A DNA stretch of 61,428 bases from Candidatus Omnitrophota bacterium (GCA_016206665.1 JACQRC010000044.1:1-61428); one strand, 5' to 3'; counted from the first letter of the stretch, positions 28,146 through 55,675 are shown. Translations and numbers: made by a program. Notes: generated by a model not told the origin, from the letters alone.

Positions 28146-29222
28146 ATGGCGGCTCAGGCGAAGGTCTCGGCGGCGCGGCTGCGGCCGCAGGCGGCGCCCT
28201 GGGCGCGGTTTCTGCCCAAGGCCTCCGGCGGGGCCGTCGGGCTCGATGTGGGCACCACCAGCTTCAAGATCGTCGAGCTCACCAAACAGGGCGCCCAACA
28301 GACGCTGGAGCGGGCGGTCGTGCAGGATGTGCCCTCCACCGACCGGAAGGCCGCGGCCGCCGCCATCAAACGCGCCTTTGAGCAGCACGCCATCGGTTCC
28401 CGCCGCGTCAATATCGCGGTCAGCGGGCCGGCCGTCATCGTGCGGTACATCGAAATGCCGGCCATGACCGACCAAGAACTCGTCAGCGCCATCCAGTTTG
28501 AGGCGGAGAAGTACATTCCCTTCAACCCGGCCGAGGTGGTCATGGATTCCTGCGTCATCGAGAAGTTCGACGGCGATAAGCGGATGAGGGTGCTCTTGGT
28601 GGCGGCCAAGAAAGAGCTGATTGATGAGCGGGTCGCGCTGTTGCAGGAAGCGGGCCTGACGCCCCGGATCATCGATGTGGACGCCTTTGCGCTGGCGAAC
28701 GCCTTTCTCCGGGTCCAGATCCCGGCCAAAGCGGACGAGATTCGCGCCGTGCTGGATATCGGCGCGGAGGTCACCACGGCGACCGTGCTCCGTGGCACAC
28801 GCCCGGCCTTCACGCGCGACATCATGGCCGGCGGCAATGCCTTCACGCGGGCCATGATGGAGAAGCTCGGCGTAGCCGCCGCGGCGGCCGAGGCCTTGAA
28901 GCGCCAGCCGGGGGGGCGGGGGGCTGAGATCTTTGAGGCGGTCAAACCGGTGATCGACAACTTGGTGAGTGAGATTCGGCTCTCCTTTAATTACTATGAA
29001 AGCCAGGCCGACCACGGCATCGAGGCGCTGTACCTCAGCGGCGGGGTGACCGGCCTGGAGGGTGTGAGCCGGTACATTCAAGAGAATGTTGAGGTCGAGG
29101 TCCGCGCCTGGGATCCCCTGCAGGGGCTCCAACTCGGAGCCTCCGTCGACCGGGCCGGCCTCACCCGGACGGCGCCACGGTTGGCGGTGGCCATGGGGTT
29201 GGCTCTGAGGTCGCTCTCATGA
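28146..29222 (+). CDS. pilM: Type IV pilus assembly protein PilM
   Basis: VGLDVGTTSFKIV, EAEKYIPF, VLLVAAKK, IDVDAFAL, LDIGA, LSGG, AVAMGLALR. Confidence 0.93.
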   Translation: MAAQAKVSAARLRPQAAPWARFLPKASGGAVGLDVGTTSFKIVELTKQGAQQTLERAVVQDVPSTDRKAAAAAIKRAFEQHAIGSRRVNIAVSGPAVIVRYIEMPAMTDQELVSAIQFEAEKYIPFNPAEVVMDSCVIEKFDGDKRMRVLLVAAKKELIDERVALLQEAGLTPRIIDVDAFALANAFLRVQIPAKADEIRAVLDIGAEVTTATVLRGTRPAFTRDIMAGGNAFTRAMMEKLGVAAAAAEALKRQPGGRGAEIFEAVKPVIDNLVSEIRLSFNYYESQADHGIEALYLSGGVTGLEGVSRYIQENVEVEVRAWDPLQGLQLGASVDRAGLTRTAPRLAVAMGLALRSLS

Positions 29223-29332
29223 CCCCACCACCTCCAGCCGCCCATCGCGCGTGTGTCGTCCGCCCTCCGGCGATGGGCGGACGACGGGTCGTCGCAGGGC
29301 CCGTACGGGCCCTGCTGGAGGTGGTGGGGTGA
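29220..29332. mobile_element. Family B MITE-like element, copy 1
   Basis: TGA-CCCCACCACCTCCAGC...GCTGGAGGTGGTGGGG-TGA terminal inverted repeats with a TGA direct repeat; internal hairpins. Confidence 0.75.
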
Positions 29333-29970
29333 TCGCGATCAATCTGCTGTCCAAAGAATTGCAGCGCAAGGCGATGAGCCCCAGCCCGATCGCCCTCGGT
29401 AAGCTGCCCAAGCAGATCGCCGTGGCCGTGGGCGCGGTCCTGGCGGCCGTGCATCTGCTGCTGCTCATCATGCTGCTGTGGTCGCAGGCCGATGCCGCGA
29501 GGTTGGGCGCGCGGTGGAAGAAGCTCTCCGGGCCCAAGCAGCAGGTCGATGCGGTGAAGGCCGAGGTGGCCAAGCTGCAGGAGCGGGTGGTGGCGTTCGA
29601 TACCATCACGAAGGAACGGTTCCTCTGGTCGCACAAATTGCGTCAGTTGGGCGATGCCGTCATCGATGGCGTCTGGCTCTCGGAGCTCTACCTCGAGCGA
29701 CAGCTCACGCCGGCGGCCACGGCCGCCAAGGGCCGCGCGGCCGTGGCCGGTTCGGAGCAGCTGCAATTGGTCTTGAAGGGCAGCGCGGCGATGCCGGATG
29801 CCGAGGGCGCGGTCATCGTGGGCCGGTTCATGGAGAATCTCAAGGCCCACGCGCCCTTCTTCCAGGATTTTAGGGAAATCGTCTCCGGCGGCCTGCAGTC
29901 GCGCAAGATTCGTGAGGTGGAGATCATGGACTTCACCGTCTCGGCGCCCTTGCGGCGGCAGACCTTCTGA
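29329..29970 (+). CDS. pilN: PilN-like protein
   Basis: GTG start giving (M)IAINLL, TM helix, coiled coil, GVWLSEL. Confidence 0.82.
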   Translation: MIAINLLSKELQRKAMSPSPIALGKLPKQIAVAVGAVLAAVHLLLLIMLLWSQADAARLGARWKKLSGPKQQVDAVKAEVAKLQERVVAFDTITKERFLWSHKLRQLGDAVIDGVWLSELYLERQLTPAATAAKGRAAVAGSEQLQLVLKGSAAMPDAEGAVIVGRFMENLKAHAPFFQDFREIVSGGLQSRKIREVEIMDFTVSAPLRRQTF

Positions 29971-30572
29971 TGGCCGCGAAATTCGACCTCCACGCGTTGA
30001 AAGCGAAGCAGCCGCTCATTCTCGGCGCCGTGATCGGCCTGTTGCTGCTCTTCGTCGATATGCAGTGGGTGTTGGCGAAGTGGGTGCAGATGCTGCGCGC
30101 CAGCCAGCCCAAGGTTACCAAACTGCGGCAGGAGATCAAGCAGGCCGCGTTCGATGCGCAGCAGCATCCGGCCATGGAACAGCGGTTGACGGAGTTGCGG
30201 GCCCAGTACAGCCGGCACAGTCAGCAGCTGCTCTCCGAGGCAGAGATGCCGCAACTCTACAAACAACTCGGCGAACTGGCGAAGCAGAGCAATGTGAAGA
30301 TCGTGTCCATCAGCCGCAAGGACGACACGGGCAAGCGGCAGGCCAAGCCTGCCGGTCGGGGCGAGAGCGGATTTCTGACCGTGATTCCCATTGCCATTCA
30401 GGCGCGCGCCGGCTACTATGCCCTCGTGCAGTTTCTGGAACAGTTGGAGCGTTCGGGCTTGCTGATCAATGTCTCGGATGTTTCCATCAAGGCCGATAGT
30501 CAGAGCGCCACCCAGCAGGCGGTTCAGTTGACGCTCTCGATGTATGCCCTGCGGGAAGGGGTGGCCAAGTGA
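29970..30572 (+). CDS. pilO: PilO-like protein
   Basis: TM helix, coiled coil, EMPQLYKQLGELAKQSNVKIVSI, GYYALVQFLEQLE. Confidence 0.82.
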   Translation: MAAKFDLHALKAKQPLILGAVIGLLLLFVDMQWVLAKWVQMLRASQPKVTKLRQEIKQAAFDAQQHPAMEQRLTELRAQYSRHSQQLLSEAEMPQLYKQLGELAKQSNVKIVSISRKDDTGKRQAKPAGRGESGFLTVIPIAIQARAGYYALVQFLEQLERSGLLINVSDVSIKADSQSATQQAVQLTLSMYALREGVAK

Positions 30573-30961
30573 CGGGCTCATTTCGCGCCCTGCGGTGGGC
30601 CGTGGCGGGCGCTGCGGCGCTCATGATGCCGGCGGCGCTGGGCCTGGCGGATGAGGGCCGGCGGGATCCATTCATCGCGCTCGTCAACCGCGACGGCCGG
30701 TACATCGCGAGCGTCAAAGGCCCCGCCACGCTTGGCACCGGCATTGAGGGTGTGGTGTTAGAAGGGGTGTTGCAGGATCCTGCCGGAGCGATGGCCATCA
30801 TCAACGGCGAGGTGGTGCGGGCAGGCGATATGGTGGATGGATTCTTCGTCAAAACGATTGAGCCGGATCGCGTCATACTCAAAGTGGGGGAGAAGGAACA
30901 TACTATCTTGTTGATACGGGAGGAGGACCTCCAGGGAGGCACGCGCCATGATTCTCAGTAA
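30569..30961 (+). CDS. PilP/GspB-like protein
   Basis: RRDPF motif, LEGVL, MAIINGEVVRAGDMV; lies between pilO and the secretin. Confidence 0.72.
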   Translation: MTGSFRALRWAVAGAAALMMPAALGLADEGRRDPFIALVNRDGRYIASVKGPATLGTGIEGVVLEGVLQDPAGAMAIINGEVVRAGDMVDGFFVKTIEPDRVILKVGEKEHTILLIREEDLQGGTRHDSQ

Positions 30962-32510
30962 TCGTCGAGCGGATGCTTGGACCGTCTGGCTGTTGGTGGT
31001 GCTGGCGGTGATCGGGGGTCGCTGGGCATGGGCTGAAGACCCCACGGACGGCGGGGAGTCTGCGCCGAGCGCCGCCGAATCCTCGAGCAGTCCGCCGGAC
31101 GGCCAGGAGCAGCCGATGGCGAGCTCTCCTGCGCCGAGCGAATCGCCGGCCGTTGAGGCGACGGAGGCGCCGGCGGCCACGGCGGCAGCGCCCAGCGCGG
31201 TGCAGGAGGAGCGCTCAGGCAACATCACCGTCGACTTCAAGGATGCGGATATCCAGAATGTCCTGCGCATCCTCTCCTACAAGAGCGGCATGAACATCAT
31301 CGCCGGCCCGGATGTGCAGGGGCTGGTGACGATCCGGCTCTCCGATGTGCCCTGGGAGCAGGCCCTGGACATGATTCTGAAGACCTACGGCCTGGCCTAC
31401 TCCCGGGAAGCCAATGTCATCCGTGTCACCACGCTGGAAAACCTCGAACAGGAGCAGCTGGCGACCGAGGTCTTTCCGCTCAACTACGCCAAGGCGAAGG
31501 ATGTGCCGGACACGATCAAGGAAATGCTCACCGACCGCGGCAAGGTCAAGTACGACGAGCGGGCGAACCTCCTGGTCGTCACCGACATTCCCACCAATCT
31601 CTTCAAGATCAAGCAGGTGGTCGAGCGGCTGGACCAGCGCACGCCCCAGGTGCGGATCGAGGCGAAGATCATCGAGACCAAGCTGACCAATGACGAAAAT
31701 CTCGGGATCAAGTGGGGCAGCGCCTCCGCCAACCACGTCAGCGTGACCGGGCCGATCGTTGATACCACCTTCCCGCTCGGGACGACGGCCACGCTGGGCG
31801 GGCTGGGCAAGGCCTTCATCCCGACCTTCAAGTCGATCGTGCAATCCAGCGCCACGGCCGGCGCCACCACCACCCTCTCCGGCGGCGAGTGGAACGCGAT
31901 CCCGGGCGGCGCAGGCGGGTTCAAGTTTGGCACGCTGAGCCTGTTCCAGACGGCGATCGTGCTCGATGCCATCGCCGTGCGCGCCGACACGCATGTGGTG
32001 TCGAATCCCACCGTCGTGACGTTGAACAACCAGGAAGCGAAGGTGCACGTGGGAGAGACCTTCAACATCCCGATCTACGAGCGCAACGCCTCGACCGGGT
32101 CGATCGAGGTCACCGGTTACAAGGAGCGGCCGATCGGCACCACGATTGCGGTGACCCCCCATGTCAATCCGCAGGGGGACATCATCGTGGATCTGCACCC
32201 GCAGATCGCCTCGGCGGCCAGCTCCTTTGACGATTTTGGCAACATCAAGGTGCCGCGGTTTGACGAGCAGGACGTCAAGACCCAGGTGATGATTCGCAGC
32301 GGGGAGACCGTGGCCATCGGCGGATTGGTCAAGCGCAACACCACCAAGACCAGGACCAAGGTTCCGTTTCTGGGGGATCTGCCCCTGATCGGCTTGGCCT
32401 TTTCGCATACCGCGGACAGCCTGAAGGAACAGCGCGATATTTTGATCTTCATGACCGTCACCCTGATCGACCCCGAAGGGCAGACCGTCGCCGTCGCCGC
32501 GTACCCGTAG
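30948..32510 (+). CDS. pilQ: Secretin (PilQ/GspD family)
   Basis: ITVDFKDADIQNVL, VPWEQALD, PQVRIEAKI, SNPTVVTLNNQEA, KVPFLGDLPLIG. Confidence 0.9.
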   Translation: MILSNRRADAWTVWLLVVLAVIGGRWAWAEDPTDGGESAPSAAESSSSPPDGQEQPMASSPAPSESPAVEATEAPAATAAAPSAVQEERSGNITVDFKDADIQNVLRILSYKSGMNIIAGPDVQGLVTIRLSDVPWEQALDMILKTYGLAYSREANVIRVTTLENLEQEQLATEVFPLNYAKAKDVPDTIKEMLTDRGKVKYDERANLLVVTDIPTNLFKIKQVVERLDQRTPQVRIEAKIIETKLTNDENLGIKWGSASANHVSVTGPIVDTTFPLGTTATLGGLGKAFIPTFKSIVQSSATAGATTTLSGGEWNAIPGGAGGFKFGTLSLFQTAIVLDAIAVRADTHVVSNPTVVTLNNQEAKVHVGETFNIPIYERNASTGSIEVTGYKERPIGTTIAVTPHVNPQGDIIVDLHPQIASAASSFDDFGNIKVPRFDEQDVKTQVMIRSGETVAIGGLVKRNTTKTRTKVPFLGDLPLIGLAFSHTADSLKEQRDILIFMTVTLIDPEGQTVAVAAYP

Positions 32511-32581
32511 TCCTGCCGGTTATCCCCGCAACACCTTCCACCGGGCCCCGCCAACGGTTGGGCCAGAAAAGGATTGTCTTC

Positions 32582-34109
32582 GATGGATAAAGCGATTCTG
32601 ATCAGCGTTGAATCTCAGGAGCGCCGCGTGGCGGTCGTCGAGAACAAGGTGCTTGAGGAGTTTTACGTTGAGCGCACTGGCTCCGAGCAGCTGGTGGGCA
32701 GCATCTTCAAGGGCAAGGTCAGCTCCGTCATCCCCGGGATCGGGGCGGCCTTCGTGGATATCGGGTTGCCCAAGAATGGTTTTCTCTACGTCTCGGATAT
32801 CGTCAAGCATCTGGAGGGTGACGAGGCCGAGTTGGACGAGGAGGCGGATGAGCCGAACCACCGCAAAGGCGCTGAGGAGCGGCACCGCCGGTCCCGGCGC
32901 GACTCCCACCGCATTGAGCAGCTGCTCAAGGTCGGCGACGACGTCCTGGTCCAGGTCGTCAAGGAGCCGCTGAGCACGAAGGGCGCCCGGCTGACCAGCC
33001 ACGTCTCGCTGCCGGGCCGGTACCTGGTCTTCATGCCGACCGACCACCGCGTGGGCGTCTCCAAGCGCATCGCCGACCCGACGGAGCGCTCGCGCCTGCG
33101 CGCCATCCTCAAGGAGCTGCAGGGCGGCAAGGATTTCGGGCTCATTGTCCGCACCGTCGGCTCCGGCACCGACAAAAAGGAGTTTGCCAGAGATGTGCGC
33201 TACCTCACCCATCTCTGGCAGAAGATTCACCGCAAGGCGAAGAGCGTCAAGGCGCCGAACGGGGTCTATCACGAATATGACCTGGTTCTGCGGATGATCC
33301 GGGACAGTCTCACGGACGATGTGACGCGGATGGTGGTCGACTCGCCGGAGGAGTTTCGCCGGATCTCCCATTTCATCAGCATGATCGTGCCGCAGCTGCG
33401 CTCCAAGCTGACGCTCTATCGCGGCGAGGTACCCCTCTTTGAGAAGGAAGGCATTGAGGAGGAGATCGCCAGGCTCTATGACCGCAAGGTGACGTTGAAA
33501 TCCGGAGGCTATCTCATCATCGAGCCCACCGAGGGGCTCGTGGTCATCGACGTGAACACCGGACGGTTCACCGGCCGTCGCAATCTCGAGGATACCGCCT
33601 TCCAGACCAATGTCGAATCGGCCCAGGAGATTGGCCGGCAGCTGCGGCTGCGCGACCTGGGCGGCATCATCACGATCGACTTCATCGACATGGAGTCGCA
33701 TGCCCACCGTCGCGAGGTCTTCGCGACCCTGGAGCGGGCCCTCAAGCGCGACCGGGCCAAGACGAACATCGTCTCCTTTTCGGAGCTGTGCCTGGTGGAG
33801 ATGACCCGGCAGCGGATGCGCCGCTCGATGGAGAGCGTGTCCTACCAGCCGTGTCCCTACTGCGAAGGGCGGGGGTTGGTCAAATCGGCCGTGACGGTCG
33901 CCATCGGGGCGCTGCGACAGGTGAAGCGGTATTTTCAGGAGAACCGGCAGCGCGAGATCGAGCTCTTCGTCCACCCCCAGGTGGCCGGTCAGCTCCTGAA
34001 GGAAAACCGCGCCTCGCTGGCGTCCCTGGAGCACAAGTTCAGAGCCCGCATTCTCGTCATGTCGGACCAAAGCATGCACATGGAAGGCGTCCGCATTCAG
34101 GGCGCGTGA
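32582..34109 (+). CDS. rng: Ribonuclease E/G family protein (RNase G size)
   Basis: AAFVDIG, VQVVKEP..KGARLT, IDVNTG, QLRLRDLGGIITIDFIDM, EMTRQR, CPYCEG. Confidence 0.92.
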
Positions 34110-34136
34110 AGCGCCAGCTGGTTCCGCAAACAAGTG

Positions 34137-34165
34137 TTGACGCCCCGGCCATTTTGCGGTAGAGT
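34137..34165 (+). promoter_or_regulatory. Probable sigma70 promoter of rplU-rpmA
   Basis: TTGACG-17 nt-TAGAGT, 8 nt before ATG 34174. Confidence 0.55.
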
Positions 34166-34173
34166 ACGTCGCC

Positions 34174-34506
34174 ATGACGAAGGAGGCTGACGCAACCTAT
34201 GCGGTCATCCAGGCGGGCGGGCTGCAGTATCGGGTCCGCCCTGGGGACCAGTTTGAGGTCAACCGCGTGGACGCGGCCGCAGGGGCCCCGGTCGTCTTCG
34301 ACCAGGTTTTGCTGGCGCGTCCCAGCGGGCAGATCCGGATCGGCCAGCCGGTGGTGCCTGGGGCCAAGGTCGTCTGCGAAGTCGTCTCGCATGGGCGCGG
34401 CCCGAAGACGATCGCCTTCAAGTACCACCGGCGCGAGCACTACAAGCGCAAGGTCGGTCACCGGCAGGATCTGACCAGGCTGCTGGTCAAAGACATTCAA
34501 CTGTAA
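34174..34506 (+). CDS. rplU: 50S ribosomal protein L21
   Basis: YAVIQAGGLQYRV, IGQPVVPGA, GHRQDLT. Confidence 0.95.
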   Translation: MTKEADATYAVIQAGGLQYRVRPGDQFEVNRVDAAAGAPVVFDQVLLARPSGQIRIGQPVVPGAKVVCEVVSHGRGPKTIAFKYHRREHYKRKVGHRQDLTRLLVKDIQL

Positions 34507-34521
34507 CGCAGGGAGCATTCC

Positions 34522-34785
34522 ATGGCGCATAAGAAGGGGATGGGGTCAACCCGGAACGGCCGGGACAGCAAATCCAAGCGGCTCGGCGTTAAGCGGTACG
34601 CCGGCGAATGGGTGACGGCCGGCTCCATCCTGATCCGCCAACGGGGGACGCGCATCTTCCCCGGCTGGAATGTCGGCCGCGGCGACGATGACACGCTGTT
34701 TGCCAAGATCGACGGGGTCGTCGCCTTTCCCAAGTCCCGCCTCATCACGGTTCTGCCCAAGCCTTCCCCCGCCCCCACTCGATAA
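34522..34785 (+). CDS. rpmA: 50S ribosomal protein L27
   Basis: [30 protein letters not shown]. Confidence 0.97.
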
Positions 34786-34863
34786 TCGCCTCCGTGAGCC
34801 AGGACGGTTCGGTGTTCATCTGTATTGACACCGAACAATGAACGATGAAGAATGAACAGTACA

Positions 34864-34938
34864 CCATGCATTCGACTCGGCCTTCGGCCTCGCTCAGCAT
34901 GGCGGTGAGCGAAGCCGCAGCGAGTCGAATCCGCCATG
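34864..34938. repeat. Family A palindromic element, copy 6
   Basis: CCATG-CA-TTCGACT...CGCTCAG-CATGGCGG-TGAGCG...GAGTCGAAT-CCG-CCATG; CCATG direct repeat. Confidence 0.86.

Positions 34939-35906: not shown

Positions 35907-35910
<4 letters not shown>
34936..35910 (+). CDS. obgE: GTPase Obg
   Basis: MFIDEA, PDGGNGGDGG, GMPNAGKSS, YPFTT, DIPGLIEGA, NKMD. Confidence 0.96.
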
Positions 35911-37000
<1,090 letters not shown>

Positions 37001-38288: not shown

Positions 38289-38885
38289 ATGCGCCTTGGA
38301 ATCCTCGGCGGGACGTTCAATCCCATTCACACCGGCCATCTGATTCTGGCCGAGGAGGCGCGCGCCGCCTTCGCCCTCGACCGCTGCCTCTTCATCCCCA
38401 ATGCGCTCCCCCCGCACAAGGAGGAGCCCAGCCTGGCGAGCGCCGAGCACCGATTGGCCATGGTCCGTCTGGCGATCGACGGCCATCCTGTCTTCGAAGC
38501 CTCAGAGCTCGAAATTGCCCGCGGAGGCCGGTCCTACACCGTGGACACCCTCGAGGCCCTGCGCCACCGGTACGGGCCGACGGTGGAGCTCTTTTTTCTC
38601 GTCGGCTCCGATGCCTGCGGCGGCTTGGCCCACTGGAAGTCCATGGACCGGGTGATGCAGCTGTGCCACGTGGTCGTGGCCCACCGCCCCGGCTACCGGG
38701 TCAACGTCTCGCTCGCCGGAGTGCGGCTGCTGGAAATTCCCGCCTTGGACGTCTCCTCCACGGCGATCCGTCAACGACTCCAGGCCGGCCGGAGCATTCG
38801 GTACCTGGTGCCGGAGGCGGTGTACCACTACCTCCTGACGCGCCAGCTCTACGCGGCGCCAAACGCCAGGGCCGCCAACCCATGA
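38289..38885 (+). CDS. nadD: Nicotinate-nucleotide adenylyltransferase
   Basis: GGTFNPIHTGH, PPHK, SYTVDTL, VSSTAIR. Confidence 0.96.
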   Translation: MRLGILGGTFNPIHTGHLILAEEARAAFALDRCLFIPNALPPHKEEPSLASAEHRLAMVRLAIDGHPVFEASELEIARGGRSYTVDTLEALRHRYGPTVELFFLVGSDACGGLAHWKSMDRVMQLCHVVVAHRPGYRVNVSLAGVRLLEIPALDVSSTAIRQRLQAGRSIRYLVPEAVYHYLLTRQLYAAPNARAANP

Positions 38886-38992
38886 CCCCACCACCTCCTG
38901 CCGCCCACCGCTCACCTGGTCGTCCCGCTGTGGCGGTGGGCGGGCTGTACGCAGCCGGGACCGTACGGGTCCCACAGGAGGTGGTGGGGTGA
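38883..38992. mobile_element. Family B MITE-like element, copy 2
   Basis: TGA-CCCCACCACCTCCTG...CAGGAGGTGGTGGGG-TGA. Confidence 0.75.
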
Positions 38993-39948
38993 TGCTGCTC
39001 GCCATCCTGGCGGCGCTCGCCGTCTCCGCCGCGGTGTCCGCCTCGGAGACGGCCCTCTTGGCCGTCAACCGGATTCATCTGCGCCACTTGGCCGATTCGA
39101 ACAACCGGCGCGCCCAACTCGCCTACCAGTTGGTGACTCATCCCGACCGGTTCATCACGGTCCTGCGCATTGCCGACAACTTCCTCGACGTCGCGACCTC
39201 GGTCCTCTGGACGATGGCGTGCGTCGCGTGGTTCGGTCTGTACGGGCCGCTGGTCTCGCTCGTGACGGCGACGCTCACCCTCCTGATACTCGGCGATATC
39301 ATCCCGAAATTGCTGGCCGTGCACCACAGCTTGGCCATCGCCCTCTGGGCGGCGCCGCCCGTCACGGTGCTGGCCGCCGTCATCCAGCCGGGCGTCCGCA
39401 TCGTGGCCGCAGTGGGCCGCTGGGTCGGCATCTCAGCGCCTCGGCACTCGCCCCTGGTGACCGAGGAAGAGATCCGCCTCATGATTGAGTTGGGACGGGA
39501 AGAGGGCTTTTTGAGCGACAAGGAGCGCAAGATGCTCCATCGCGTCTTCGAGTTTGGGGACACGCTGGTCAAGGATGTGATGGTGCCGCGCGAGCAGATG
39601 GTGAGCCTGCCGATCACGGCCACCACCGAGGAGCTCCTCGATCTGTTGGTGGAGGAGGGTCATTCGCGCGTGCCGGTCTATGAGGGCGACCTGGATCACA
39701 TCCGAGGGATCCTCTACGCCCAGGATCTGCTCCATCTCTGGCGGCATCAAGAGTTAGTCCTGCTGGCCGACCTGCTGCACGCCGCCTTCACGGTGCCGGA
39801 CACGAAGCGGGTCACCGAGCTGCTGCAGGAGTTTCAGCGCCTGCATGTGCAGATCGCCATCGTCGTCGATGCCCAGGCCCGCACGGTGGGGCTGGTGACG
39901 CTGGAGGATTTACTGGAGGAGATTGTGGGTGAGATCGGCGGGGTCTAG
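38989..39948 (+). CDS. CNNM (DUF21)-CBS domain protein (TlyC/CorB-like) lacking the C-terminal CorC domain
   Basis: SASETAL, GDIIPK, VKDVMVPR, HSRVPVY, GLVTLEDLLEEIVGEI then stop. Confidence 0.88.
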   Translation: MMLLAILAALAVSAAVSASETALLAVNRIHLRHLADSNNRRAQLAYQLVTHPDRFITVLRIADNFLDVATSVLWTMACVAWFGLYGPLVSLVTATLTLLILGDIIPKLLAVHHSLAIALWAAPPVTVLAAVIQPGVRIVAAVGRWVGISAPRHSPLVTEEEIRLMIELGREEGFLSDKERKMLHRVFEFGDTLVKDVMVPREQMVSLPITATTEELLDLLVEEGHSRVPVYEGDLDHIRGILYAQDLLHLWRHQELVLLADLLHAAFTVPDTKRVTELLQEFQRLHVQIAIVVDAQARTVGLVTLEDLLEEIVGEIGGV

Positions 39949-48813: not shown

Positions 48814-48823
48814 TGGGACCGCG

Positions 48824-50269
48824 ATGAACTACGAGACGACGATCGGTTTGGAGGTGCACGTGCAGCTGGCCACGCGGTCGAAGGCGTTTTGCGGCTGCGC
48901 GAACAACTTTGGCGCGGCCCCCAATGCCCAGACCTGCCCGGTCTGTCTGGGCTTGCCCGGCAGTCTGCCGGTGCTCAACCAGGCGGCCTTTGAGCTGGCG
49001 GTGCGCACCGCGCTGGCGCTCAATTGTCAGATCACCGATCGGATCCAGTTTGACCGCAAACACTACTTCTATCCGGATTTGCCCAAGGCTTTCCAGATCT
49101 CGCAATATGATCAGCCCCTCTCGCACGACGGCCATCTGGATATTCCGGTGCAGGAGCAGACCAAACGCGTGCGGATCCACCGGGCCCACCTCGAGGAGGA
49201 TGCCGGCAAGCTGCTGCACGAAGCCGGCGACGGGGCCAGCCTCGTCGACTTCAATCGGGCCGGGGTGCCCCTGCTTGAGATCGTGAGCGAGCCGGACCTC
49301 GCGTCACCCGATGAAGCCTTCACCTACCTGACCCGGCTCAAACTGATCCTGCAATATCTCGAGGTCTCGAGCTGCGACATGGAGAAGGGCACGCTCCGCT
49401 GCGACGCCAATCTGTCGGTCCGGCGGCAGGGGGAGGCAGCGCTGGGCTCAAAGGTCGAGATCAAGAATCTCAACTCCTTCCGCCATGTCCGCGCCGCGCT
49501 GCGCTATGAGCAGGAGCGGCAGGTCGCAGCCCTGCAGAGCGGCCAGCGTATCGCGCAAGAGACCCGGCTGTGGGACGCAGCGCTGGAGCGAACACGGCCG
49601 ATGCGGAGCAAGGAGGAGGCCTCCGATTACCGCTACTTCCGGGAACCGGATCTCGTGCCCTTCTCGGTGAGCCCGGAGACGATCGGCCGGGTGCGCGAGG
49701 GATTGCCGGAGCTGCCGGAGAGCCGCAAGGCGCGGCTCATGCGCGACGATCGGCTCTCATCTTACGATGCGGATCTGGTCACCTCCTCGCGACGGCTGGC
49801 CGACCTGTATGAGGCGACCGTGGCCCTGCACCGCCAGCCGAAGGCGGTGGCGAATTATCTCATTTCGGAATTGCTGGCCTATGCGCATGTGCGCAGCCTG
49901 GAGATCGAGGCGGTGGCGGTGGAGCCGGCGCATCTGGCCCAGCTCCTGCAGCTGATTGAGGCCGGCGCCATCAGCCGGCCGGTGGCCAAGAACGTTTTTG
50001 TGGAGATGATCGAGAGCCGGGTGCCGCCCGGGGAGATCGTGACGCGCAAGGGTCTGGGCCAAATCTCCGACGGCGCGGCGCTGGAGGGGATCATCGCGCA
50101 GGTCATCGCGGCGAACGCCCAGACCGTCGCCGACGTTCGGGCGGGCAAGGCCAGCGCCTTTCAGTTTCTCATCGGGCAATGCATGAAGGCGACGCAGGGC
50201 AAGGCCAACCCCCAGCGCGTCGCCGAGCAGTTGCGGCAATCTTTGTCACAACAGACCGGAGGTTCCTAG
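48824..50269 (+). CDS. gatB: Asp/Glu-tRNA amidotransferase subunit B
   Basis: IGLEVHVQL, YFYPDLPK, HLEEDAGK, RCDANLS, DYRYF. Confidence 0.96.
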   Translation: MNYETTIGLEVHVQLATRSKAFCGCANNFGAAPNAQTCPVCLGLPGSLPVLNQAAFELAVRTALALNCQITDRIQFDRKHYFYPDLPKAFQISQYDQPLSHDGHLDIPVQEQTKRVRIHRAHLEEDAGKLLHEAGDGASLVDFNRAGVPLLEIVSEPDLASPDEAFTYLTRLKLILQYLEVSSCDMEKGTLRCDANLSVRRQGEAALGSKVEIKNLNSFRHVRAALRYEQERQVAALQSGQRIAQETRLWDAALERTRPMRSKEEASDYRYFREPDLVPFSVSPETIGRVREGLPELPESRKARLMRDDRLSSYDADLVTSSRRLADLYEATVALHRQPKAVANYLISELLAYAHVRSLEIEAVAVEPAHLAQLLQLIEAGAISRPVAKNVFVEMIESRVPPGEIVTRKGLGQISDGAALEGIIAQVIAANAQTVADVRAGKASAFQFLIGQCMKATQGKANPQRVAEQLRQSLSQQTGGS

Positions 50270-50270
50270 G

Positions 50271-51590
50271 ATGAACAGTTCCGTGGCGCGACGCATCTGG
50301 ATCGGCCTGCTGGTGGTCATGGTGGGCCTGCTCGCCTGCAACGTCAGCCCCACCCAGAGCGCCCCCAAGAAGGAGCGGTCGGATTCAATCTATGAGGACC
50401 TGGAACTGCTGACGGATGCCATCTCCATCGTCCAGGCCGAGTACGTCGATGAAACCAAGTCGAAGGATCTCATCTACGGCGCCCTGGAGGGGATGCTGGA
50501 CCACCTGGATCCCAACAGCTCCTTTTTGAATCCCGACGCCTACAAGGAGATGCGGCTGGAGACGGAAGGCGAGTTTGGCGGGCTGGGCATCGAGATCGCG
50601 GTGCGGGATGAGCTGCTGACCATCATCTCGCCCATCGATGACACGCCGGCCGCCAAAGCGGGGCTGAAGGCAGGGGACCGGATCGTCAAAATCAACAACG
50701 AGCTGACTCGCGGACTGACGCTCCAGAACGCGGTCAAGAAACTGCGGGGCAAGCCGGGCAGCCAGGTGGCGCTGACCGTGTTGCGCGAGGGGGAGAAGAA
50801 GCTGCTCGATTACAACCTGACGCGGGACGTCATCAAGATTCAGAGCGTCAAGGACACCAAGATCATCGAGGATCACATCGGCTACGTTCGGATCGCCTCC
50901 TTTCAGGAGCATACGCCGGATGATCTGGAGCAGGCCCTCCAGCGGCTGACGCAGGAGCAGATGCAGGGCTTGATTCTCGACCTGCGGAACAATCCCGGCG
51001 GGCTGCTCGATGTCGCCGTGGCGGTGTCCGAAAAATTTCTGGCGCCCAAAACGCTCGTCGTCTCAACGCGCGGCCGCCGGGGCAACCAGAACATGGAATT
51101 CCGCGCGCGGGGCAGCCGGCACTATCTGAACGTCCCGCTCGTCGTGATGCTCAATGAGGGTAGTGCTTCCGCCTCCGAAATTGTGGCCGGAGCGGTGCAG
51201 GACCACCACCGCGGTGTGTTAGTCGGCACCAAGTCCTTTGGCAAGGGCTCCGTGCAGACCGTCATTCCCATGAAGGACGGCAGCGCGCTGCGCCTGACCA
51301 CGAGCAAGTACTACACGCCGAGCGGCCGCTCGATTCACGGGCTCGGGATCGTTCCCGACGTCGTCGTGGAGGAGATGCCGGCGTTGGTCCAGATGGCGAA
51401 CGTCCCCAACGCCACAGAACTGTTCGAGAAGATTGAGAAGAACACGCTGGAGCCGGACAAGCTGCCATCGCCGGACAAGGACAAGGCGGCCGCGCCCAAG
51501 CCCTACGACATGCAGTTGGCGCGGGCGATTGACTTGATCAAGGGGATCCGGGTGTACCAGAAAGCGCCGGCGGCGACGAGCACGGAGTGA
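50271..51590 (+). CDS. S41 family carboxyl-terminal processing protease
   Basis: GGLGIEI PDZ, DLRNNPGGLL, SASASEIVAG, SFGKGSVQ. Confidence 0.93.
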   Translation: MNSSVARRIWIGLLVVMVGLLACNVSPTQSAPKKERSDSIYEDLELLTDAISIVQAEYVDETKSKDLIYGALEGMLDHLDPNSSFLNPDAYKEMRLETEGEFGGLGIEIAVRDELLTIISPIDDTPAAKAGLKAGDRIVKINNELTRGLTLQNAVKKLRGKPGSQVALTVLREGEKKLLDYNLTRDVIKIQSVKDTKIIEDHIGYVRIASFQEHTPDDLEQALQRLTQEQMQGLILDLRNNPGGLLDVAVAVSEKFLAPKTLVVSTRGRRGNQNMEFRARGSRHYLNVPLVVMLNEGSASASEIVAGAVQDHHRGVLVGTKSFGKGSVQTVIPMKDGSALRLTTSKYYTPSGRSIHGLGIVPDVVVEEMPALVQMANVPNATELFEKIEKNTLEPDKLPSPDKDKAAAPKPYDMQLARAIDLIKGIRVYQKAPAATSTE

Positions 51591-51637
51591 CTAGTGACTA
51601 GTGACTAGTGACTAGTGACTGGTGTCGAGTGACGAGT
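51586..51637 (+). repeat. (AGTGACT)x5 plus two degenerate units
   Basis: Five perfect 7-mers 51586-51620 starting at the protease stop codon, then GGTGTCG and AGTGACG. Confidence 0.92.
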
Positions 51638-51641
51638 ACGC

Positions 51642-52415
51642 ATGAGAATGTCGTATCGACGGTTCATCGCGGTCCTGGTCGTGCTGGCGGTCGCCGGCGG
51701 GTGGGGCGTCCACCAGGCGCTCGAATCCCGCAAGCCGCGGGTGGCGATCGTCATTGATGACGTGGGGTATACGGATCGCTCGGTGGCGGCGGTGCGCCAT
51801 CTGCCGCGGCCCGTGACCTTCTCGATCCTGCCGAACCTGCCACACTCGACCGCGATGGCCCAGGCGGCCCAACAGCGTGGGCATGAGGTGATCATCCACC
51901 TGCCGATGGAGCCGCACGAGCCGGTCTCAAAGGAGGCCGCGCTCCACCTGGAGCAGTACACCGTGCTCGCCGCGATGCACGCAACCGAGGTCGAGGAGAT
52001 CCTCGCGCGCGCCACCGCCTCGGTGCCCTACGCGAAGGGGCTGTCGAATCACATGGGCTCGAAGGCCACCGAGAACCGGCGGGTGATGCGGGAGCTGCTG
52101 CGCGCCCTGAAGGCCCGGCGCATGTTTTTTCTGGATAGCGTTGTGACCACGCGCTCGATGGGTGAGCGGGTGGCCAAGGAGGTGGGCCTGCCCTTTGCGA
52201 GGCGCAGCGTCTTTCTCGACAACGAGGAGCGGCCCGACTACATTGCGCACCAGCTGCGGCTCGTGGCCGCCGAGGCCAGGGTGCGCGGCTCAGCCATCGG
52301 TATCGGCCATGACCGCACGCTCACCTATCAGACGCTGCAGCAGGTGATGCCGGAGTTGCGGAAGGAAGGCATTCGATTTGTCCGCGTGTCGCAGTTGACG
52401 AAGCAGGTGCCATAG
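51642..52415 (+). CDS. Divergent polysaccharide deacetylase family protein
   Basis: AIVIDDVG, IHLPMEP, NHMGS, FLDS, VFLDN, IGIGH. Confidence 0.92.
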   Translation: MRMSYRRFIAVLVVLAVAGGWGVHQALESRKPRVAIVIDDVGYTDRSVAAVRHLPRPVTFSILPNLPHSTAMAQAAQQRGHEVIIHLPMEPHEPVSKEAALHLEQYTVLAAMHATEVEEILARATASVPYAKGLSNHMGSKATENRRVMRELLRALKARRMFFLDSVVTTRSMGERVAKEVGLPFARRSVFLDNEERPDYIAHQLRLVAAEARVRGSAIGIGHDRTLTYQTLQQVMPELRKEGIRFVRVSQLTKQVP

Positions 52416-52417
52416 GC

Positions 52418-53458
52418 ATGTCCCTCGTGTTGGGCATCGAGTCCTCGTGTGACGAGACCTCGGCGGCCGTGGTGCGCGGGGAGCGGCGGGTCCTGTCGAA
52501 CATCGTGGCTTCCAGTCTGGCCTTTCACCGCCGGTATGGCGGCGTCGTCCCCGAGGCGGCCTGCCGGGCGCATGTGGAGGTGATCTGGCCGGTGGTGGAG
52601 CAAGCCCTCGCGGAAGCGAAGGTGCGGTTGCCCGAGCTCGACGCGATTGCCGTCACCTGCGGTCCGGGCCTGGTCGGCGCGCTGCTCGTCGGGGTGGCCT
52701 TTGCGAAGGGCTTGGCCTGCGCCCTCGACAAGCCGCTCATCGGCGTCAGCCATTTGGCCGCGCATTTGTACGCGGGCGTGATGGCCCAGCGCGGGCCGGT
52801 CTTTCCGTGCGTGGGCCTCATCGTCTCAGGCGGTCATACCCTGTTAGTCGAGGCGCGTGACATTGACGACTTTGTCCGCTTGGGGGAGACCCGGGATGAT
52901 GCGGCCGGCGAGGCCTTTGACAAGGTGGCGAAGTTGTTAGGGCTGGGGTATCCAGGCGGGCCGCTCATCGAGCGCCGCGCCCTCGACGGCGAGGCCTCCC
53001 GCGTCCGTCTGCCCAGCCCGGGCCTGGATGATGAGACGCTCGATTTCAGTTTCAGCGGACTGAAGACTGCGGTTCTCTATCACGTGCGCGGCCAACCCAT
53101 GCACAACGGCGCCTCCGTGCGCACGGTCAACGATGTAGCCGCCAGTTTTCAGCGCGTGACGGTGGAGGCGCTGGTGCGCAAGGCCATCGCCGCGAGCCTG
53201 CGCGTCAAGGCGCGGCGGCTGATCGTTGGCGGCGGGGTGGCGGCGAATCAGGCGCTGCGCCAGGCGCTGACGCGCGCCGGGCGCGCGGCCGGGGTGCGCG
53301 TCTGGTTTCCCCCGATGGCTCTGTGCATCGATAATGCGGCCATGATCGCCGGCCTGGGCGCGGCGCTCTTCCGGCGTGGCGTGCGGTCACCCTTGTCGTT
53401 GTCCGTGGATCCCGGCCTGGGCTTGGCGGTGCAGAGTGGAGGTGGCCATCGTGGATGA
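52418..53458 (+). CDS. tsaD: tRNA N6-threonylcarbamoyltransferase
   Basis: LGIESSCDET, GGVVPE, HLAAH, VSGGHT, DDAAGEAFDK, FSFSGLKT, DNAAMI. Confidence 0.97.
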   Translation: MSLVLGIESSCDETSAAVVRGERRVLSNIVASSLAFHRRYGGVVPEAACRAHVEVIWPVVEQALAEAKVRLPELDAIAVTCGPGLVGALLVGVAFAKGLACALDKPLIGVSHLAAHLYAGVMAQRGPVFPCVGLIVSGGHTLLVEARDIDDFVRLGETRDDAAGEAFDKVAKLLGLGYPGGPLIERRALDGEASRVRLPSPGLDDETLDFSFSGLKTAVLYHVRGQPMHNGASVRTVNDVAASFQRVTVEALVRKAIAASLRVKARRLIVGGGVAANQALRQALTRAGRAAGVRVWFPPMALCIDNAAMIAGLGAALFRRGVRSPLSLSVDPGLGLAVQSGGGHRG

Positions 53459-53912
53459 CCGTGACATCATCATACGCCTGCTGCTGGCGACGGTGCTCAG
53501 CGGGCTCATCGGCTTCGAGCGGGAGCGGCACGGCCGGGCGGCCGGGTTGCGCACGCACATGCTCGTCTGCGTGGGCGCTGCGCTCGTCATGCTCACCGCC
53601 ATGCATCTCATGACATTTTCCGAGGCGGATCCGGGCCGCTTCGCCGCGCAGGTCGTGAGCGGCATCGGGTTTCTGGGGGCGGGCACGATCATCCGGTCCC
53701 GGGCCTCGGTGCGCGGGCTGACCACCGCGGCCAGCCTGTGGGCCGTGGCCGGGGTGGGGCTCGCCGTCGGCAGCGGCTTTTTCGTCGGGGCGATCGCCGC
53801 CACCATCATCATGCTGGTCGTGCTACTGGCCTTGCCGATCGTTGAGTACCGGTACATCGGCAAAGGTGCTCATGTGGAACCGGATGAGGAAGACGCGGGC
53901 GAGTCGTCGTAA
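53451..53912 (+). CDS. MgtC/SapB family membrane protein
   Basis: IGFERE, AGLRTH, AQVVSGIGFLGAG, GLTTAA; GGAGG RBS. Confidence 0.92.
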   Translation: MDDRDIIIRLLLATVLSGLIGFERERHGRAAGLRTHMLVCVGAALVMLTAMHLMTFSEADPGRFAAQVVSGIGFLGAGTIIRSRASVRGLTTAASLWAVAGVGLAVGSGFFVGAIAATIIMLVVLLALPIVEYRYIGKGAHVEPDEEDAGESS

Positions 53913-53933
53913 GCACACGCAGGGAGGTGCCCA

Positions 53934-54467
53934 ATGCCGCTACGCAGAGCTCGGCCGGAAGAGGCAGCGCAGGATCGGGTGCTCGACGTCGATGCCGGAA
54001 TGCAGGGCAGCCTGTCGTTTAGGGACCCGGTGAATCTGCGCATCAACGGGCGATTCGAGGGGCGGCTGACCACGCGGGGCCAGCTGACCATCGGGGAGAA
54101 GGCTGAGGTGCGGGCCACGATCGAGGGGGAGTCGGTGGTGATCGCCGGGCGGCTGGAGGGGGATATCACCGTCACCCAGCGGCTGGAGATCGCCTCGACG
54201 GGCAGGGTCTCAGGCAACATCCGCACGCCGGTGCTCGTCGTGCAGGAGGGCGCCATCCTGCAGGGGCAGTGCGTGATGGGGCAGGCGTCGGGCAGCGAGT
54301 CGGAATTTTTGACCATCGAAGAGATGGCCCGATACCTGGAAGTCGAGCCGGCGGCGATTCATGAGTGGGCGACCAGCGGCCGCATGCCGGCGGTGAAAGA
54401 CGGCGCCGGCTGGCGGTTCGACCGGACGAAGATCGATGAGTGGATCGCGCAGGAGAAGATCAAATAG
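53934..54467 (+). CDS. Bactofilin fused to an excisionase-like HTH
   Basis: GSLSF..NLRINGRFEG..LTIGEKAEV..IAGRLEGDI..GAILQGQC, then FLTIEEMARYLEV..MPAVK..WRF. Confidence 0.87.
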   Translation: MPLRRARPEEAAQDRVLDVDAGMQGSLSFRDPVNLRINGRFEGRLTTRGQLTIGEKAEVRATIEGESVVIAGRLEGDITVTQRLEIASTGRVSGNIRTPVLVVQEGAILQGQCVMGQASGSESEFLTIEEMARYLEVEPAAIHEWATSGRMPAVKDGAGWRFDRTKIDEWIAQEKIK

Positions 54468-54790
54468 AACCCAAACTGCTGACGAAGGCTGAGGCGGCCG
54501 CCTATCTGGGCGTGGCCGAGCGCGATCTCGAACGCCTCGTGGCGCTCGGGCAGGTGCCGGCCTACCGCGTCGGCGGGCAGTTTCTGCGCTTCCGTCCCGA
54601 GCAGCTCGATGGACTGAAGGGGGTCCGGTTGGCCGAGAAGCTGGCCCGCCTCAACGCGTTGGCTCCCCGGATGACCCTGTGGGCGCGGGCGAGGGATGGG
54701 GCACTCGACTTTCTCTACTTCAACGACTTTTACCTGGTCTCGGCCGTGCTGGCCGTCGTCTTGCTCGTCATCTTTGCGCGCCAGCAGTAA
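54440..54790 (+). CDS. Excisionase-like HTH protein with C-terminal TM helix
   Basis: LLTKAEAAAYLGV..VPAYRVGGQFLRF; DFLYFNDFY then hydrophobic helix; start uncertain. Confidence 0.8.
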   Translation: MDRAGEDQIEPKLLTKAEAAAYLGVAERDLERLVALGQVPAYRVGGQFLRFRPEQLDGLKGVRLAEKLARLNALAPRMTLWARARDGALDFLYFNDFYLVSAVLAVVLLVIFARQQ

Positions 54791-54814
54791 GGCGCAGCGC
54801 CACGCTCCCACGGC

Positions 54815-55567
54815 ATGATCTATACGGTGCCACGAGTACAGCGGATGTTGCAGGACCTGCGTCAACGGCGGCGCAGCGTCGCCCAGGTGATGCAGGAGCT
54901 GCGGCAGCTGCCGGTGGATGATGTCGGCTTCGCCAAGCTGGACACTCATCGCGGGCTGCGGCGCGGCCTGCCCGAGGCGATCTACTGCAACGGTAAAACG
55001 CTCGAGCAGCTGTCCATCCTCATCGACCGGCTGGGGCGCGTCGCCGATCCCGTGCTGCTGACGCGACTGACGGCCGCGCGGTACGCCCAACTGGGCAGGC
55101 GCCACCCGCGTCTCCGGTACGCCGCCGAGGCGCGGTTGGGCTATCTGACGCTGCGGCGCCGGCGGCCGTTGCGGCGGGGGAGGGTCGTCGTCGTGACCGG
55201 CGGCACGGCGGATGGGCCGGTCGCCGAGGAGGCGGCCGCCACCCTCGAGATTCTGGGCCATCGCGTCACACGGCTGCTCGACGTGGGCGTGGCGGGCGTG
55301 CATCGGGTGCTGGCGCATCAGCGCGCGCTGCAAGGGGCGCGGGTCGTCATCGTCGTGGCCGGGATGGAAGGGGCGTTGGCGAGCGTGGTGGCCGGGTTGA
55401 CGGCCGCGCCGATCGTCGCGGTGCCGACGAGCGTGGGGTACGGCGCCAGCTTCCGCGGCATCGCTCCCTTGCTGACCATGCTGAACAGCTGCGCGCCGGG
55501 CGTGGGGGTCGTCAACATCGACAACGGATTTGGCGCCGCCTACCTTGCGCATCTCATCCGTCGGTGA
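54815..55567 (+). CDS. larB: Nickel-pincer cofactor biosynthesis protein (AIR carboxylase-like)
   Basis: FAKLDTHR..GLPEAIY..GK, GTAD.PVAEEA, DVGVAGVHR, AGMEGAL, PTSVGYG, VNIDNGFGA. Confidence 0.93.
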   Translation: MIYTVPRVQRMLQDLRQRRRSVAQVMQELRQLPVDDVGFAKLDTHRGLRRGLPEAIYCNGKTLEQLSILIDRLGRVADPVLLTRLTAARYAQLGRRHPRLRYAAEARLGYLTLRRRRPLRRGRVVVVTGGTADGPVAEEAAATLEILGHRVTRLLDVGVAGVHRVLAHQRALQGARVVIVVAGMEGALASVVAGLTAAPIVAVPTSVGYGASFRGIAPLLTMLNSCAPGVGVVNIDNGFGAAYLAHLIRR

Positions 55568-55675
55568 CCCCACCACCTGCTGCCAGGCCCGCAGGGCCGG
55601 TCGGCCGTAGGGCCGACGCCCCGCCGTGGCGCAAATCGTCACGGGACTGGCGGGGCGCAGCAGGTGGTGGGGTGA
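55565..55675. mobile_element. Family B MITE-like element, copy 3
   Basis: TGA-CCCCACCACCTGCTGC...GCAGCAGGTGGTGGGG-TGA. Confidence 0.75.

Follow-up and report, generated by a model that had tools for sequence, protein, structure and literature searches.

How can a transposable element settle on the start codon of a gene and leave that gene translatable? The question is raised by a 61,428-nt contig of a Candidatus Omnitrophota bacterium (GCA_016206665.1, JACQRC010000044.1:1-61428; the whole of this stretch is called the window below), in which three gene junctions are each occupied by a copy of a short element with inverted-repeat ends. An earlier note, drawn from this sequence alone, described the three as a MITE-like family (for miniature inverted-repeat transposable element) that sits on stop-start overlaps and rebuilds translational coupling. 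The data presented here support the classification of the family as a non-autonomous MITE-like element with a real 3-bp target duplication. Taken as a whole, they make it likely, in our opinion, that this is a mobile element residing on start codons, whose ends keep the interrupted gene translatable.

The window is contig C20 of a genome (G000) of 1,497,521 bases in 105 contigs, with a GC content of 64.6% and a completeness of 75.8%. At least 146 distinct copies of the element were analysed, namely those of G000 and loci L001-L134; copies outside G000 were picked by their perfect 11-nt ends.

Three copies of the element in the window

All three copies begin with CCCCACCACCT and end with AGGTGGTGGGG, and have TGA on either side. 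In the family as a whole the ends take the form CCCCACCACCT(C/G).../...(G/C)AGGTGGTGGGG, i.e. perfect inverted repeats, which enclose variable interior hairpins. The element pattern was found exactly three times in the window (29223-29329, 38886-38989 and 55568-55672) and was absent from each of 100 dinucleotide-preserving shuffles, which confirms the common inverted ends and TGA flanks reported previously.

Copy 1 (29223..29329, plus strand, as are all features described here; 107 nt, length mod 3 = 2) has terminal inverted repeats that pair over 17 bp, and internal hairpins. It separates pilM (28146..29222; Pfam PilM_2, E 1.4e-63) from a pilN-like gene (29329..29970). The left TGA of the duplication (29220..29222) is also the pilM stop codon and forms, with A29219, the old ATG start of pilN. 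This old start codon opens a 37-codon mini-ORF (open reading frame; 29219..29332, MTPPPPAAH...LLEVVG*), which stops at the right TGA (29330..29332), overlapping a new pilN GTG at 29329-29331. A GGAGG Shine-Dalgarno (SD) motif (29317..29321) is placed in the right inverted repeat, 7 nt upstream of the new GTG and, in the predicted RNA fold, hidden within the closing stem. The pilN-like ORF starts at this element-derived GTG (V/M-IAINLL); it has no Pfam match at E<=0.001, and is named PilN because it adjoins pilM and matches relatives starting with M-[IL]-x-[IV]-N-L-L. Of the six gene names proposed earlier, the other five were upheld by Pfam.

The second copy (38886..38989, 104 nt, mod 3 = 2; TGA at 38883-38885 and 38990-38992) lies between a nadD-like cytidylyltransferase gene (38289..38885; Pfam CTP_transf_like), whose final codon is the left TGA, and a CNNM/CBS transporter gene (38989..39948; Pfam CNNM+CBS). 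Its mini-ORF (38882..38992) has 36 codons (MTPPPPAAHRSP...PQEVVG*) and a stop codon overlapping the new GTG at 38989-38991, with GGAGG upstream at 38977-38981. Since the match to the Pfam CNNM profile begins at position 2, residue 5, the new GTG would yield a full-length CNNM protein.

Copy 3 (55568..55672, 105 nt, mod 3 = 0) differs in its CTG-type ends. It is flanked by TGA at 55565-55567 and 55673-55675, the former being the final codon of a larB-like gene (54815..55567; Pfam AIRC domain), and is read in frame from the old GTG into the following cupin gene, giving an ORF of 147 aa (55564..56007; VTPPPAA...GGGV; Pfam Cupin_2), for which the new GTG at 55672 is an alternative start. When the element and one TGA are deleted, the sequences restored are ...CTCTCATGATCGCGATC (MIAINLL) for copy 1, ...AACCCATGATGCTGCTC (MMLL) for copy 2 and ...CGTCGGTGAGCCCCTCT (MSPS) for copy 3. 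The clean overlaps, the two stop-free mini-ORFs of 37 and 36 codons with their GGAGG and overlapping GTG, and the in-frame reading of copy 3 were thus all recovered as first described.

Evidence for mobility

Fourteen copies, each with perfect 10-nt ends, are present in G000; 13 of them measure 81-110 nt, while one mini copy has only 33 nt. After orientation of the copies by their flanks, TGA was found on both sides of 11 and TGG on both sides of three, the base 5' of TGA being A in seven cases, G in three and C in one. Across the family, element size ranges from 33 to 160 nt, and the sole ORFs are read-through frames of 15-51 codons, which leave no room for a transposase. The perfect terminal inverted repeat has a median length of 15-16 nt (range 11-17 nt; 77 copies). 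Identical 3-bp flanks border 103 of the 146 copies (TGA 75, TGG 11, TAA 8 and, together, CGA, ACA, AAG, TCG, CTA and CGC 9). In the other 43 the 3-bp flanks do not match: TTGA stands on both sides of four, a single base differs in others, and a few, from unrelated phyla, appear to be matches by chance. The TTGA-flanked copies (L127, L015, L064 and L101) reflect either a 4-bp duplication or an end extended by T, and such flanks would restore a whole TTG start codon.

Near-identical elements occur at unrelated genes, as seen for a copy on contig C18 and window copy 1, and for L020, L066 and L068. In tandem or nested arrangements (L055, L073 and L119), the second copy uses the GTGA or GTGG with which the first one ends, and the flank between them is shared. 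An empty site is indicated by the pilM-pilN junction, which lacks the element in 26 of 26 relatives, with the pilN start (M-[IL]-x-[IV]-N-L-L) at the codon predicted for the empty site; this is the outcome that the earlier note had anticipated for related genomes. Together with the real duplication, the 14 copies in G000 and the at least 146 distinct copies overall, it bears out the proposal of a non-autonomous mobile element. In G000, end pairs with 2+2 mismatches are at chance level (34 versus 27 in the reversed genome), which argues that the genome holds no decayed copies.

Contigs of groundwater DNA (four runs of one study) span both of the elements that were compared with them, with 0 differences. 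No contig join skipping exactly an element was found in the four runs, a result that is no evidence either way, since contigs drop rare variants. Nor was any RNA run found to contain the stretch, which is equally uninformative.

Several other observations concern individual copies. In two genera, elements in frame (66 and 81 nt; L010 and L016, in G030 and G006) occupy the same AAG site, which is close to the 3' end of an ORF (...EGSTTIIG...). Two 87-nt copies in G000 (C51:23017-23103 and C90:58128-58214) are reverse complements relative to their host genes. Compared over their first 80 nt, they differ solely in one hairpin, whose 3-nt loop is inverted on an identical stem (GAT versus ATC); this looks like a hairpin-loop inversion. 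A 119-nt variant in another metagenome-assembled genome (MAG; L104:5976-6094) is found at a pilN-like gene start (VIRINLLPP...), a site of the type occupied by window copy 1; the interiors of the two are unrelated, and no pilM-like ORF ends on the left TGA of the variant. Finally, solo words resembling the right end (GGAGGTGGTGGGGTGA and GGTGGTGGGGTGATG) are located at gene junctions in G000 (C82:42982 and C64:31707) with no left end; one of them precedes an ORF starting with MNRAVFLDRDGVIN, which by eye resembles a GmhB-type phosphatase. These may be either half-elements or native junctions similar to the element end.

Position on start codons

The point of insertion lies directly after the first base of a start codon, at A/G|TGA or A/G|TGG; the TGG copies are found on ATG|G, GTG|G or TTG|G. 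Position -1 of the 75 TGA sites holds A in 51 cases, G in 17, C in four and T in three, and no other flank position is informative: apart from a weak excess of purines at -16 to -9, the 75-site logo contains no target motif beyond RTGA. In 60 of the 75 TGA copies, the right-end GTG begins an ORF of at least 100 codons, compared with 5052 of 20000 random [AGT]TGA sites (p = 6e-23). That these ORFs start where genes start is indicated by their domains. For 54 right-end ORFs outside G000, the first Pfam domain lies within 25 residues of the expected N-terminus in 39, the rest comprising seven gene-internal and eight ambiguous cases. Among the 39 are Trigger_N (1-1), RecO_N (1-1), CDP-OH_P_transf (1-1), DHDPS (2-1), ROK (6-2, twice), RuvC (8-1), SmpB (12-3) and ribosomal proteins L5, L10, L19 and L22.

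The same picture emerges within G000, where an ORF of 103-399 codons begins on the right-end G+TG in 10 of the 11 TGA copies and the left TGA closes an upstream ORF of 173-485 codons in nine. This genome contains 22,862 [AG]TGA sites, of which 3,149 are in DNA outside ORFs of at least 90 codons; the start codons followed by A number at most about 550, which is an estimate rather than a count. If all harmless sites were equal, finding 10 of 11 copies at starts would have p = 5e-8.

The site preference claimed earlier is therefore real (60/75 at ORF starts versus 25% of random sites), but it concerns start codons and not specifically overlaps. Just 40 of the 75 TGA copies follow an ORF of at least 80 codons that terminates on the left TGA, which means that about half of the sites are stop-start overlaps and the remainder ordinary starts whose second codon begins with A. 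The claim that the element is confined to coupled junctions is likewise too narrow in view of the eleven TGG copies, ten insertions within genes and eight TAA copies mostly 3' of stop codons; of these eight, five coincide with an upstream ORF's stop codon, and a long ORF follows one.

One start codon, that of a ROK-family kinase gene, is occupied by an 80-nt element in two MAGs labelled 'Planctomycetia' (L077 and L090). The ends of these two elements are the same, their interiors have strongly diverged, and the flanks are about 63% identical, consistent with either an old retained insertion or repeated use of one site.

Reading frame, Shine-Dalgarno motif and RNA fold

Element length is constrained by the reading frame. 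Among the 75 TGA copies the length mod 3 is 2 in 46, 0 in 26 and 1 in only three; counted over the 38 distinct lengths of TGA and TGG copies, the corresponding numbers are 19, 16 and 3 (binomial p = 2.5e-4). In G000, five copies belong to the mod-2 class (107, 107, 104, 110 and 107 nt) and nine to the mod-0 class (105, 90, 87, 81, 33, 87, 87, 81 and 90 nt), with none in mod 1. The TAA copies serve as an internal control: their ratio of 4:3:1 for mod 0:1:2 reveals no frame constraint.

The frame opened by the old start codon is free of stops in 72 of 86 TGA and TGG copies, versus 34-48 of 86 in the other five frames. The difference persists in elements with interior GC below 55%, where the captured frame is stop-free in 37 of 42 and the other frames in 11-22 of 42. 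A further comparison uses the symmetry of the ends: as found, 43 of 46 mod-2 copies have an open mini-ORF, but only 16 of 46 would have one if the element were reversed (p = 3e-9). No such difference was detected in the mod-0 class (28 versus 27 of 34). The genome scan proposed in the earlier note thus gave positions, lengths mod 3 (46:26:3) and stop content (72/86 open) that are all non-random, as it had predicted.

The two classes differ in anatomy. In mod-2 copies a mini-ORF, MTPPP...EVVG, ends with a TGA overlapping the new GTG, and GAGG or GGAGG is found 5' of this GTG; mod-0 copies are read in frame as TPPP...GGGV. The classes are also distinguished by the base at -12 from the right end, which is G (GAGGTGGTGGGG) in 78% of 45 mod-2 copies, often within AAGGAGG or AAAGAGG, and C (CAGGTGGTGGGG, CAGG) in 94% of 32 mod-0 copies; as the classes represent lineages, this G/C association may stem from descent and not from independent selection.

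The predicted RNA folds of the window copies have energies of -88.7 to -93.4 kcal/mol (z-scores -5.4 to -7.6), and no shuffled sequence reached values as low. In these predictions a closing stem of 16-17 bp, formed by the inverted repeats, encloses two or three hairpins, and both the SD motif and the new GTG are inside the stem. When the five mod-2 copies of G000 are compared, pairing is retained through changes on both sides in 11 of 38 predicted pairs. The elements have no match in Rfam at gathering thresholds.

Insertions within genes

Ten copies lie inside genes, each interrupting a Pfam domain or splitting a known domain architecture. All ten have a length mod 3 of 0 and the reading x-PPP...GGG-x; the screen that produced seven of these could detect the PPP/GGG frame only. 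Reading through the element restores the whole protein in the case of a Mur ligase (L006), TilS (L011), a DEAD helicase (L092), TsaD (L120) and NuoF (L126), as well as a MiaB-like enzyme (L037), in which the element is placed between the UPF0004 and radical-SAM domains; the DnaE insertion (L088) is truncated by a contig end. A screen of all frames added MutS domain I (L128), pyruvate:ferredoxin oxidoreductase (L001) and IF-2 (contig C37 of G000). In other frames it yielded four long read-through ORFs (L029, L070, L103 and L110), with no domain evidence for an element inside a domain.

The codons entered within genes are ATG or GTG in seven of ten cases, despite CTG being commoner, which hints that the purine at -1 is a true DNA target preference. 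The requirement for a length mod 3 of 0 argues that the copies are translated and not removed from the RNA.

Distribution

The pattern occurs in 18 of 41 related genomes, G000 included, and the reversed-pattern control gave 0. It is present in 17 of 36 other members of the order and in none of four genomes from other families of the class; the 17 of 40 relatives that carry it have 1-18 copies each. The end word followed by TGA was found in 19 of 37 genomes of the order. A wider scan, using one genome per species, revealed at least 116 stretches with the end pattern, most of them in MAGs labelled Candidatus Omnitrophota or Omnitrophica, 'uncultured Planctomycetia' or Elusimicrobia. At least some of the 'Planctomycetia'-labelled MAGs are of the Omnitrophota lineage. 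Identical ends were also observed where the element interiors are AT-rich.

Lone matches in Rhodospirillales, Thioclava, Acidithiobacillus and Thermoleophilia, as well as in a 'delta proteobacterium' MAG (L035) and a Bacilli MAG, show no matching flanks of the TGA type and were set aside as chance or unrelated sequence. A MAG labelled Deltaproteobacteria (L084), with TGA flanks and a mini-ORF 5' of recO, was kept in the counts.

Two further features of the window were noted. A c-di-GMP-I riboswitch aptamer (23192-23291, plus strand; Rfam RF01051, 53.7 bits versus a gathering score of 35) is placed about 3 kb 5' of a long ORF ending at 27581, with the pilM operon further downstream. In the region 33393-33753, the contig word depth in groundwater run X1 rises to 673, from about 10-50 elsewhere, which suggests a segment that is conserved in, or common to, many other organisms.

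Proposed mechanism and alternatives

Taking into account the duplications and their position, we propose that a DDE-type transposase, acting in trans, may make a 3-bp staggered cut at (A/G)|TGA or (A/G)|TGG. The left copy of the duplication would then preserve the old start codon and, where genes overlapped, the upstream TGA stop codon. After insertion this start reads N-TG ACC CCA CCA CCT, i.e. M-T-P-P-P. At the other end, the last base of the element is G, so that any TGN duplication rebuilds a GTG before the displaced gene. What follows would depend on length. In mod-2 copies at TGA (window copies 1 and 2) the mini-ORF ends as ...EVVG-TGA, forming a GTGA with a -4 overlap, 7 nt 3' of GAGG or GGAGG; a ribosome translating it could melt the 16-17-bp stem that hides the SD motif and GTG, stop and reinitiate, and a ribosome stopping at the TGA of the upstream gene could act likewise. 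Mod-0 copies (window copy 3) would be read in frame as T/A-PPP...GGG-V, producing an N-terminal extension or, inside genes, a loop insertion. TAA and other duplications 3' of stop codons make up a third class, free of frame constraint, and copies breaking the frame rules would mostly be lost. Judged by its anatomy, the idea that the element rebuilds translational coupling appears to be a good one. None of the outcomes named in the earlier note as contrary to its interpretation was seen; that interpretation is partly supported, being right in kind and too narrow.

Several points weigh against this proposal. Mini-ORF translation and reinitiation are inferred from the sequence, as are the transposition mechanism and the cause of the scarcity of intergenic copies. 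Three of the 46 mod-2 copies (L027, L087 and L053) have an internal stop and yet precede long ORFs, and the mod-1 copies L076 and L113 precede genes with intact N-terminal domains; four of these five ORFs have such domains, that of L053 being unscanned. In some cases, therefore, direct initiation at the SD-GTG of the element itself may be enough. Only 1 nt separates the old start from a predicted stem of high stability, which could hinder initiation there, and an SD-like 4-mer is found 5' of the old start in no more than 22 of 86 copies, the figure for random sites being 13%. End conservation is partly a matter of ascertainment, given that perfect 11-nt ends were demanded outside G000. Copies and genomes share kinship, so that the p-values, from tests treating copies as independent, overstate the evidence, and gene positions derive from ORFs and Pfam rather than gene calls.

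The searches for a transposase were negative. No pair of ends (with at most one mismatch) bearing the flanks of an element lies 300-4000 nt apart in G000 or in L001-L170, and the search for a transposase gene bounded by the same ends, suggested in the earlier note, thus came out negative. The transposase families searched for, PF01609, PF13359 and PF13586, have no matches in G000, nor in five copy-rich genomes (G034 and G042-G045); these searches were made on incomplete MAGs, and insertion sequences are often missing from assemblies of this kind. PF01609 matches on short contigs of G002, G006 and G031 were considered as a partner and rejected, as the ends are absent there, one contig having only a GAGGGTGGTGGGGTGA-like word.

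The scarcity of copies between genes could, by our reasoning, arise from start-directed insertion, from fast loss of untranslated copies or from positive selection of those on start codons. It is possible, and we hold it as a tentative explanation, that insertion occurs at any RTGR and that intergenic copies are quickly lost while those on start codons persist. Loss might proceed, with the same tentativeness, by harmless deletion, the genomes being small and streamlined, or because a long hairpin does harm when untranslated. A start-codon copy is removable by exact excision only, and would persist for that reason, its translational features merely making it survivable. In favour of this explanation, the related genomes are small (0.7-2.6 Mb), about 87% of G000 is under long ORFs and no degenerate copies are found there; the ROK start shared by two MAGs, with its diverged 80-nt elements and flanks of about 63% identity, also fits old retained insertions. 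Alone, however, it leaves unexplained both the open mini-ORFs (43/46 versus 16/46 when flipped) and the occurrence of GAGG in mod-2 but CAGG in mod-0 copies. It largely overlaps the start-codon reading that we prefer, from which it differs only in the cause of the intergenic scarcity.

We regard it as unlikely that start sites are actively targeted, i.e. that the transposase or a host factor recognises them by more than the 4-nt word and that occupancy reflects insertion preference. The location of 10 of 11 TGA copies of G000 at ORF starts despite 22,862 available [AG]TGA sites (p = 5e-8), the preference for ATG and GTG over the commoner CTG within genes (7/10) and the reuse of GTGA or GTGG at the end of a resident element by tandem copies would all be accounted for in this way. 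On the other hand, the 75-site logo is informative at -1 only, apart from the purine excess at -16 to -9, and we know of no mechanism by which a DDE transposase reads a start codon. The frame, stop and flip statistics require selection after insertion in any case, and the TAA, ACA, AAG and CGA duplications at non-start sites demonstrate that insertion elsewhere happens.

More doubtful still is positive selection of start copies as domesticated regulators, serving as a portable strong ribosome-binding site or as a switch. The switch, an equally doubtful addition, might be a stem opened by temperature or an EF-P-dependent stall at Pro-Pro-Pro. Put most fully, and in our judgement improbably, this explanation gives the inverted repeat two jobs and makes the element a portable, tunable translational coupler, favoured by selection. 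The 5' arm would encode Thr-Pro-Pro-Pro, and a ribosome slowed on this EF-P-dependent polyproline would hold the 16-bp stem open, exposing the SD motif and GUG on the 3' arm; the mod-0 class would use its PPP...GGG ends as flexible linkers for insertion into protein loops. If this were true, the output of dozens of housekeeping genes in two candidate phyla would be set by a mobile module. Many right ends are AAGGAGGTG or AAAGAGGTG, near the full SD consensus and with 7-nt spacing, and SD-like motifs 5' of old starts are infrequent (22/86); furthermore, the ends are perfect in 14 of 14 copies of G000 while interiors differ, and hairpins are maintained through compensatory change. Yet no theme links the host genes, which are unrelated and of the housekeeping type (trigger factor, SmpB, RuvC, ribosomal proteins, MurG and others), the interiors are not conserved, and recent transposition equally predicts perfect ends.

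Finally, it is very improbable that the sequences are not mobile at all but represent an ancient intercistronic RNA motif, or an attC- or REP-like recombination site evolving in place, for although their conserved ends, variable hairpins and size of 33-160 nt recall integron attC sites and REP/BIME, this is already contradicted by the varying direct 3-bp flanks (TGA, TGG, TAA, ACA, AAG and CGA), and is opposed by the near-identical copies at unrelated genes, the empty pilM-pilN junction in 26 relatives, the insertions within ten different genes, and the absence of Rfam matches on the elements and of cassette arrays.

Significance

The family is a clear example from nature of how a host's translation machinery has shaped a transposon. 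One 16-nt inverted repeat supplies a readable N-terminus, an SD motif, a start codon and, jointly with the target duplication, a stop codon, and length mod 3 alone would decide between three outcomes: a coupled mini-ORF, an N-terminal extension or an in-frame loop. For genome annotation, the consequence is that, in both phyla, dozens of housekeeping genes per genome will be given wrong starts by gene callers, or that odd insertions of 25-40 residues will be reported in conserved proteins. The elements may also be regarded as natural constructs with which termination-reinitiation can be compared with structure unmasking in translational coupling.

Comparison with known systems

REP, BIME and REPIN sequences generate no target duplication and are mobilised by a RAYT (Y1) transposase, in contrast to the present element with its clear 3-bp duplication of variable sequence. 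The IS5 family (IS1031 group) and PIF/Harbinger-Tourist elements produce a 3-bp T-N-A duplication. The duplication described here is also of 3 bp, and 83 of the 103 matched flanks (TGA/TCA and TAA/TTA) obey the T-N-A rule; however, 20 do not, including TGG in 11 as well as ACA, AAG and CGA, and no gene of the DDE_Tnp_1, DDE_Tnp_1_2 or DDE_Tnp_4 type was found in G000, in the copy-rich genomes or beside the ends.

In being small, hairpin-forming and multi-copy, with inverted repeats and a target duplication, the element resembles Correia/NEMIS, ERIC, BOX and RUP sequences. These are transcribed with neighbouring genes and affect the mRNA; they duplicate TA or other sites and reside in untranslated intergenic regions. 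Roles in mRNA are listed for such co-transcribed MITEs in passages of a 2024 review (PMC10969869), and in the passages searched there the terms 'start codon', 'stop codon' and 'ribosome binding' are absent.

Insertion in frame has a precedent in the Rickettsia palindromic elements (RPEs), which, according to the same passages (PMC10969869), are about 150 bp long, encode a conserved peptide, and often lie in frame within protein-coding genes, where they are translated. Like them, the present family consists of palindromic mobile repeats able to reside in frame inside genes, as in ten copies that are predicted to be translated. By that description of RPEs, it differs in that only the ends (TPPP / GGGV) are conserved and most copies are on start codons; moreover, one class ends in its own stop codon, and the host phylum is another.

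[quoted passage not shown] They contain a small ORF that overlaps, with its own start and stop, those of the flanking genes, with a -4 spacing (passages of PMC12548453, on Supply et al. 1997). The mod-2 class likewise has a mini-ORF whose TGA overlaps a start codon (GTGA), and 40 of the 75 TGA copies also overlap an upstream stop. When set against that description, the element is distinguished by its perfect inverted repeats of 15-16 nt and 3-bp duplication, a last base that makes the new start, an SD motif within the inverted repeat and an in-frame class; its inverted repeats and mostly single copies are the reason why we do not file it among the MIRUs.

No description of this element was found in the literature covered, subscription journals and supplements being outside that coverage. 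The MIRU-type strategy of inserting on a start codon and staying coupled would also have arisen in an inverted-repeat, target-duplicating transposon of uncultured Omnitrophota and Elusimicrobia. The family joins MIRU-like and RPE-like behaviours in a true inverted-repeat/target-duplication element of other phyla.

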